From Escherichia coli (GTDB taxonomy: Bacteria; Pseudomonadota; Gammaproteobacteria; Enterobacterales; Enterobacteriaceae), in NCBI RefSeq assembly GCF_048403405.1, contig NZ_CP183129.1: a stretch of DNA of 64,000 nucleotides. One strand, written 5' to 3'. This document shows positions 43,382 to 44,050 of the stretch, one piece after another. Made by a program: the position numbers and the translations under genes. Under the pieces are notes generated by a model that searched no databases, had not been told where the DNA came from, and was given only the letters and a program-made list of their open reading frames with translations. How positions within the stretch are numbered: position 1 is the stretch's first letter; every line of letters begins with the position of its first letter.

Positions 43382-44050
43382 AAACACATTGCTGAAAGCA
43401 GGGGTGGATAGTTCCACTGGTGCCACAGAACGGCTGAATACGGTAACTGTTGCTGGTGGTCTGTCCTGTTGTCGTTCCAGTCTCATCAAATTGAGAGGCA
43501 AGACAAAGTGCATTTTTGCACTATAGCCAAAGCCTCATAAAACAGAGTTACCCCCACAGGCTGGCAAACCATTACCCAACGCAATTAAGTGCGTCAGAAT
43601 CGATTACAGCGCGTTCCTGTGGCACGTTGTTGCCGTTCTCAGCAGTGAAAGGAGAGCGTGAAAAGCGCATATCTATTACTGTTGAGGGGTGTAGCGGCAT
43701 ATATCGCGAATATCCACGCCCTTAATCCCGATACCGTCACGGCGCATTGAGATCCACCAGAAGATTAAGATAGTTTTTACCTGAAATTATCCAAATAATT
43801 GTTTTAACTGATTAATTTTTCGAATATCTATTGTTAGGGAATAAATCATCAGATACACCATAAAACGACATCTTTCAGGGTGTAGAAGATGCAAAGCCGG
43901 TACTGAAGAAAAGACAAAGAATATGAATGGCTGGCCACACGATGGAAGGATTGTCCATTGAAGGATCAATCCTAATGGTATAAGTATTAATAAAACCGTG
44001 CAGGGGGCTTTTTTATCTGCGGATTCCCGCCCGGGCGGCGGTGGCATTCG

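Follow-up and report, generated by a model that had tools for sequence, protein, structure and literature searches.

A probable junction of two modules in non-coding DNA beside the distal iterons of an EcCIMP1-like island of Escherichia coli

The stretch at positions 43382-44050 (about 670 bp) of an Escherichia coli chromosomal island is probably a non-coding junction between two modules, consisting mostly of decaying leftover DNA, in a phage-inducible chromosomal island (PICI) of the EcCIMP1 type. All positions are those of the window, that is, the 64,000 nucleotides of contig NZ_CP183129.1 that were analysed. Judged by comparison with related islands and phages, the stretch is a mosaic of mostly decayed gene remnants and one candidate cis element, a conserved block of 71 nt. 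The left module would be the cis-acting set of the island, namely the arm sites of the integrase, a cos of the phiP27 type and the distal iterons, and the right module would be the podophage ejection-protein genes, apparently acquired from phiV10-like phages. An earlier sequence-only reading had located the stretch between iteron cluster 1 and the cargo-operon terminator and had described it as non-coding. The location proved correct, with the last iteron ending at 43384 and the terminator running from 44077 to 44060, and no credible gene was detected within 43382-44050. The features of the stretch and its surroundings are as follows.

42756-42763, no strand assigned: left island junction, with the att core around TGAA/TGAATCTG; the right end lies at about 61806
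42825-42848, plus strand: two TTATGTACAC repeats, candidate arm-type binding sites of the integrase
43084-43226, minus strand: cos-like block, outside the stretch and on the other side of the iterons
43229-43384, no strand assigned: iteron cluster 1, with TGCGGGTTA at 9-nt spacing (43229-43258), an AT-rich spacer and three copies of ATAACCCGCAAA at 21-nt spacing
43386-43553, no strand assigned: island-specific spacer, with homologues only in copies of the same island
43554-43624, no strand assigned: backbone block of 71 nt, 80-85% identical to islands at the yejO/tRNA-Pro site (E. coli) and to E. albertii
43697-43747, minus strand: relic of 16 codons (MRRDGIGIKGVDIRDI) from the final gene (93/94 aa) of related satellites
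43748-43915, no strand assigned: AT-rich spacer (32% GC) without a clear homologue
43916-43990, plus strand: 3′ end (24 codons) of a phiV10-like DUF4760 gene, interrupted by a premature stop (KEYEWLATRWKDCPLKDQS*WYKY*)
44016-44051, plus strand: last 12 codons of a phage gene for a 53-aa 'transmembrane anchored protein'
44060-44077, minus strand: intrinsic terminator of the cargo (ejection-protein) operon, with the stem AGGCCGC/GCGGCCT followed by a T-run
44091-51523, minus strand: cargo operon of four genes, encoding an internal virion protein with an SLT domain (873 aa), virion proteins of 565 aa and 850 aa, and a 186-aa protein
53609-53733, no strand assigned: iteron cluster 2, between ssb and the DUF927 primase gene, mirroring cluster 1 and built on the same 9-mer

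Setting of the stretch in the island

The island measures 19 kb (about 42756-61806) and is flanked by cvrA and a leucine-rich-repeat (LRR) protein gene at its left end and by dadX/dadA at its right. Its products include AlpA, a P4-type integrase with an arm-binding domain, DUF4222, a DUF927 primase, SSB and a ProQ/FinO protein, together with Rha/AntA/Bro regulators, an Icd-like protein and PerC; the PerC and Rha/AntA/Bro/Icd labels are those of the RefSeq annotation of a 99.9%-identical copy (L001). An integrase/AlpA/primase core, PerC and a cargo of podophage ejection genes were thus all found, with no capsid or terminase genes, and on this gene content the island is classed as an EcCIMP1-like PICI. 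No tRNA or tmRNA was detected in the window.

At least 80% of the stretch was present in 44 of 5,426 complete E. coli genomes, with 97-100% identity in the copies listed, and it occurs at no fewer than three different chromosomal sites, with clean junctions. The same island is inserted between dinD and yicC in strain F719 (L001), where homology spans 42743-61806 of the window and both junctions carry TGAA-containing repeats, and beside the GH15/GhoT locus in SCU-105 (L003). The island is therefore mobile, being found at different chromosomal sites, and the occupation of several sites with clean junctions is indirect evidence of its putative helper-dependent excision, circularisation and transfer. 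An exact 21-mer scan of viral contigs yielded just two further E. coli copies of the stretch.

Near the left junction, the two TTATGTACAC repeats would serve as arm-type binding sites of the integrase, and about four related copies containing TGTACA are present beside int, at about 61605-61661. Homology of the SCU-105 copy to the window begins only at 42872, and TCTATACACAT repeats occupy the place equivalent to that of TTATGTACAC. The LRR protein gene between cvrA and the island (448 aa, 41412-42758), which may derive from an effector-like islet, ends with a TGA stop codon (42756-42758) that coincides with the att junction. The arm repeats are overlapped by an ORF (42772-43260) that several genome annotations list as a 'hypothetical protein'; it extends into the cos block and shares 83% identity over 42915-42985 with part of rlfB from phage P1. 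Since the sister islands lack 42939-43083, the region 42860-43122 of this ORF is probably a further gene relic. Positions 43463-43488 and 42709-42734 (the latter in the LRR gene just outside the island) form an inverted match of 26 nt (22 of 26 positions), which had a BLAST E value of 0.12 within the window and was set aside as probably due to chance.

Gene remnants, spacers and the edges of the cargo operon

The right part of the stretch was derived from phage genes. The segment 43916-44016 matched the end of a DUF4760 gene of a prophage at 85% identity, and identity to the prophage rose to 100% over 44016-44090. At the protein level, 24 codons of the DUF4760 gene matched at 87.5% with an in-frame stop, and 12 codons of the 53-aa gene matched at 100%; a decayed terminator hairpin of the DUF4760 gene was recognized at about 43994-44015. 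Compared with L004, L005 and L012, a deletion of roughly 195 bp at 44015 has removed the rest of the 53-aa gene and its upstream region. Both remnants are thus collinear with intact phiV10-like genes in DNA and protein, and both carry disabling lesions. The 53-aa gene is intact in L004 and L012, and the left junction at 43916 is common to all copies; the phage genes therefore arrived with the cargo and decayed later in the lineage. These two plus-strand 3′ ends entered together with the cargo and the terminator convergent to them, and the stop codon and the deletion of roughly 195 bp were acquired subsequently in this lineage.

A further remnant was found at 43697-43747, with 88% identity over 51 nt and 75% identity over 16 aa to the last gene of related satellites. 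The intact counterpart is the last gene of a 10.8-kb circular satellite and of a TerS/TerL-bearing element. That circular sequence (L020, NZ_CP148328.1, 10,790 bp), deposited as plasmid pZ1323HEC0475-3, encodes an integrase, AlpA, an Icd-like protein, DUF4222, a primase and a protease-capsid fusion, and resembles an excised satellite more than a plasmid. When a plasmid collection was compared with the stretch, only the satellite-gene fragment and the terminator were matched. Degenerate remnant sequence had been one of the possibilities raised from the sequence alone, and it describes the right 135 bp, which are decayed 3′ ends of phiV10-like genes, as well as the satellite gene fragment.

The two spacers (43386-43553 and 43748-43915, about 340 bp in total) had no homologue outside copies of the same island. 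Spacer 43748-43915 showed marginal AT-rich similarity to the corresponding yejO-type spacer (score of 15 versus 10.7 +/- 1.6), and nothing beyond this one match emerged when the unexplained spacers were aligned more loosely to the spacer of the sister islands. Most of the stretch probably has no function in its own right, a conclusion drawn from negative findings.

On the right, the stretch abuts the cargo operon. The segment 44016-44094 was 96-100% identical to phiV10-like phages and prophages, and the cargo DNA as a whole reached 93-100% identity to phiV10-like phages only at its two edges, 44016-44094 and 51105-51534. Copies of the island were homologous to one another up to 44093 and again from 51105, with different alleles of the ejection genes in between. 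The breakpoints of the alleles coincide with the phage-identical edges, which suggests cassette exchange with phiV10-like prophages, the ejection-gene alleles apparently being exchanged by homologous recombination. The homology anchors for such swaps would then be 44016-44094 and, where the SLT gene starts, 51105-51534. The stretch itself illustrates the decay of a cargo junction, and marks the graft point of phage DNA on the island backbone.

Conserved block, iterons and cos-like site

Lack of conservation had been named beforehand as an observation that would speak against any function of this DNA, and most of the stretch indeed lacked it, with the exception of the 71-nt block at 43554-43624. 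The block was the sole piece of the backbone spacer alignable with the sister islands, both of its flanks being unalignable. It contains a 22-bp dyad, GCGYCAGAATCGATTACAGCGC (GCGTCAGAATCGATTACAGCGC), at 43591-43612, present as a single copy in the window. In its right half, or core, we counted one difference in 38 nt, compared with pS values of 0.25 for ssb and 0.43 for proQ, both neighbouring genes, and among nine yejO-type copies there were four variable sites in the 160 nt around the block and none in the 52-nt core, compared with 83 in 1130 overall; the block was selected after the fact, so these statistics of constraint are post hoc. The variability of the block region in the same nine copies was as low as that of the cos block. 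A scan anchored on DUF927, with one genome per species (seven loci), detected the block in E. albertii only, the other loci having just the iterons or the cos core. It was found neither in EcCIMP1 nor in DUF927 islands of other genera, and is limited to Escherichia. Inspection of the dyad by eye gave no convincing consensus for a promoter, IHF, Fis, LexA, CRP, dif/cer or a MOBQ nic site. In some strains, only the far end of the island, with cos, iterons and block, is kept at the yejO/tRNA-Pro site (L021, NZ_AP027759.1, 8395-9977); this relic is fused to a truncated integrase gene, and the edge of the deletion lies just past the conserved block.

The block with its dyad is the one piece likely to be under constraint, and is probably a binding site for a dimeric DNA-binding protein of the replication and packaging module. 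Most simply, such a protein would bind the dyad in the service of the neighbouring module. Survival of the block could instead reflect mosaic recombination, which would have left ancestral sequence between two replaced segments.

Iteron cluster 1, with ATAACCCGCAAA iterons starting at 43331, 43352 and 43373, and iteron cluster 2, just downstream of the primase gene, are both built from the 9-mer TAACCCGCA. Their geometry is kept exactly in the yejO/tRNA-Pro sister islands and in EcCIMP1, with different 9-mers. Three island lineages display three 9-mers in one geometry, namely the window, L008 (3739-3864 and 6018-6166) and EcCIMP1 (L022, 3036-3161 and 11575-11696); one copy (L004) has one additional 21-nt iteron unit. 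The arrangement fits initiator-binding iterons of a putative two-part origin, and the pattern of 9-mers is consistent with their co-variation with the DUF927 primase.

Directly to the left of cluster 1, 43115-43196 was 86% identical (E value of 4e-13) to the whole HNH-terS intergenic region of phiP27, the home of its annotated 10-nt cos. The cohesive-end counterpart, GAGGCGGCG at about 43146-43154, has 9 nt (GAGGC-GGCG) and not 10; the corresponding sequences are CGCCCGCCCC in phiP27, TGCCCGCCCC in SfI and GAGGCGGGCG in the SCU-105 copy. The 10-nt cos of the SfI/SfV family has been determined experimentally for SfI (PMC3636060). A cos core, GTAAAAATTTGA(C/G)G(G/A)GGCGG..., is common to the sister islands, EcCIMP1, and the HNH-TerS interval of capsid-forming PICIs of Pantoea and Winslowiella. 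Copies of the cos-like site were located in EcCIMP1 (L022, 2461-2543) and also in L006, L008, L009, L013 and L021, and no such sequence was found in Kapi1, the helper of EcCIMP1. We consequently regard 43115-43196 as a predicted cos site, with putative cleavage by terminase/HNH. The packaging or cos-like site suggested earlier does exist near the end of the element; its place, however, is not within the stretch but some 190-270 bp farther left.

This adjacent cos site is a more useful lead than the stretch. Its presence here, in sister islands and in EcCIMP1, and its absence from Kapi1, lead to a testable packaging hypothesis for EcCIMP1-like islands. We hypothesize that these islands may be packaged by the HK97-like cos terminases of phiP27/SfV-like phages or of capsid-forming PICIs.

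Competing explanations and known systems

Could a small ORF (69 aa, 86 aa, 65 aa or 45 aa) be a real gene? The ORFs of 69 aa (43516-43725, plus strand) and 86 aa (43787-44047, minus strand) were confirmed to exist, and annotation pipelines place a long ORF over the neighbouring iterons that extends about 30 bp into the stretch. However, each of the six frames of the stretch contains 5-15 stops, the longest open run being 87 codons, and close copies differ by frame-breaking indels at 43550, 43565 and 43774; in the SCU-105 copy (97.8% identical), the 69-aa frame is disrupted by an insertion of 2 nt. The 86-aa ORF runs antisense to the two phage gene remnants and across the deletion junction, where L004 and L012 have about 195 bp. 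Scans of all small ORFs against Pfam and PHROG returned no match, a six-frame comparison of the conserved block among six island copies revealed no ORF in common, and a tblastn search of the stretch with every open frame of at least 40 codons in 13 related loci, drawn from phages, cf-PICIs and sister islands, recovered only the already-known remnants. The view that the 69-aa and 86-aa ORFs are spurious and that no convincing ORF is present was thus borne out. At the level of sequence comparison the small ORFs are refuted as genes, and we consider a real gene here to be extremely improbable. A regulatory or antisense RNA, acting with the ProQ/FinO protein as partner or against the end of the cargo operon, is unlikely, though less remote than a protein-coding gene. 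The island does encode a ProQ/FinO protein, relatives of which bind small RNAs, the conserved block is non-coding, and a weak terminator-like hairpin is present on the minus strand (43522 to 43507). Yet an Rfam scan of 40000-47000 gave no match at E values up to 1, folding of the block on both strands in two island types yielded z-scores of +0.9 to -1.8 with no significant stability, and none of the 16 pairs predicted from its alignment was compensatory. Promoter-like sites were fewer in the stretch than in shuffled sequences (3 versus 5.0), no conserved promoter-terminator pair was detected in it, and the hairpin is not conserved in the sister islands. The small RNA proposed earlier accordingly found no support in Rfam, in the folds or in the promoter-terminator search.

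That the stretch holds a packaging signal of a helper phage, either cos or pac, is very improbable. It does lie near the end of the element and adjoins phage-derived DNA, and the packaging mechanism has been left open for the published relative EcCIMP1; but within the distal 1.3 kb, homology to phage packaging sites was confined to 43115-43196, and the phage matches inside the stretch were limited to the DUF4760, membrane-protein and terminator remnants, which lie away from terminase genes. The search of 43382-44050 for a cos of the phiP27/SfV type revealed neither similarity to the terS region nor a 10-nt G/C-rich cohesive end, and a cos in the stretch itself appears largely refuted by these comparisons. 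Unlikely too, though less so than a small RNA, is the idea that part of the stretch, mainly 43386-43624, forms a distal replication element with accessory sites for a host factor or the initiator, in the way that crr accompanies ori in P4. The stretch abuts the iterons, the block lies 130-170 bp past the last iteron in both island types despite their differing iteron sequences, and the dyad resembles what may be a protein-binding site; such a role is also compatible with the place given to the block in the module-junction reading that we prefer. Against this, no iteron lies inside the stretch (the iterons end at 43384, and those of the putative origin occupy the adjacent 43229-43384 and 53609-53733), nothing like the flank or the dyad was found at cluster 2, the block is missing from EcCIMP1 although the iterons there have the same geometry, and no clear DnaA or IHF consensus was recognized on inspection. 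Equally unlikely is a more active version of the junction, as a standing 'landing pad' for the capture and swapping of helper genes, in which the terminator segment would be one anchor and the dyad block would couple the iterons and cos to an island or host protein in helper-induced replication and packaging. We therefore retain, as the probable reading, a module junction composed mostly of decaying leftover DNA.

The origin of satellite phage P4 is bipartite, comprising ori plus crr. As in this island, P4 has two separated clusters of one short iteron, one by the primase-helicase gene and the other kilobases off. The P4 repeats, TGTTCACC, differ from the island iterons in both sequence and geometry, and binding of the DUF927 protein is putative here; the stretch merely adjoins the two-cluster element of the island.

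The predicted cos site is like the HNH-associated cos of phiP27, SfV and SfI, including the G/C-rich cohesive-end sequence. The cos sites of these phages and of cf-PICIs are flanked by HNH/TerS, whereas this island is without HNH, TerS and TerL genes. PICIs of E. coli that use cos, such as EcCICFT073, also combine integrase, AlpA and primase with a helper-type cos in non-coding DNA (Fillol-Salom et al. 2019, PMC6739421). Those of the EcCICFT073 type have a lambda/phi80-type cosQ/cosN and a private cosB read by Rpp (PMC6739421). In contrast, the island described here has a phiP27-type cos whose similarity extends to either side of cosN, and it showed no homologue of Rpp.

The closest comparison is with EcCIMP1, the PICI of E. 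coli MP1 (Pick, Stadel & Raivio 2025, PMC11773190). Both islands measure roughly 19-20 kb and contain an integrase, AlpA, an antirepressor, an Icd-like protein, DUF4222, a DUF927 primase and PerC. In each, ejection-protein genes of podophage type follow the primase, the iterons form two clusters with the same geometry, and a cos-like block of the phiP27 type is present. The ejection-protein genes of EcCIMP1 resemble those of its podophage helper Kapi1, a P22-like Lederbergvirus; transduction by this helper is very low, the mechanism of packaging was left open, and this phage is present in just 2 of the 21 other carriers (PMC11773190). DNA identity between the two islands is only 68-73% in the primase, antirepressor and cos segments, and EcCIMP1 is without the 71-nt block, ssb and proQ and has its att site at tRNA-Thr. 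The source of the cargo also differs, being P22-like Kapi1 for EcCIMP1 and phiV10-like phages here. At the far end of EcCIMP1, between the distal iterons and the cargo, lies an opposite-strand gene derived from the helper, alpA_1, which resembles the helper xis. Whereas alpA_1 is intact and has been shown to affect excision of the helper, the opposite-strand genes at the corresponding end of the island described here are dead remnants.
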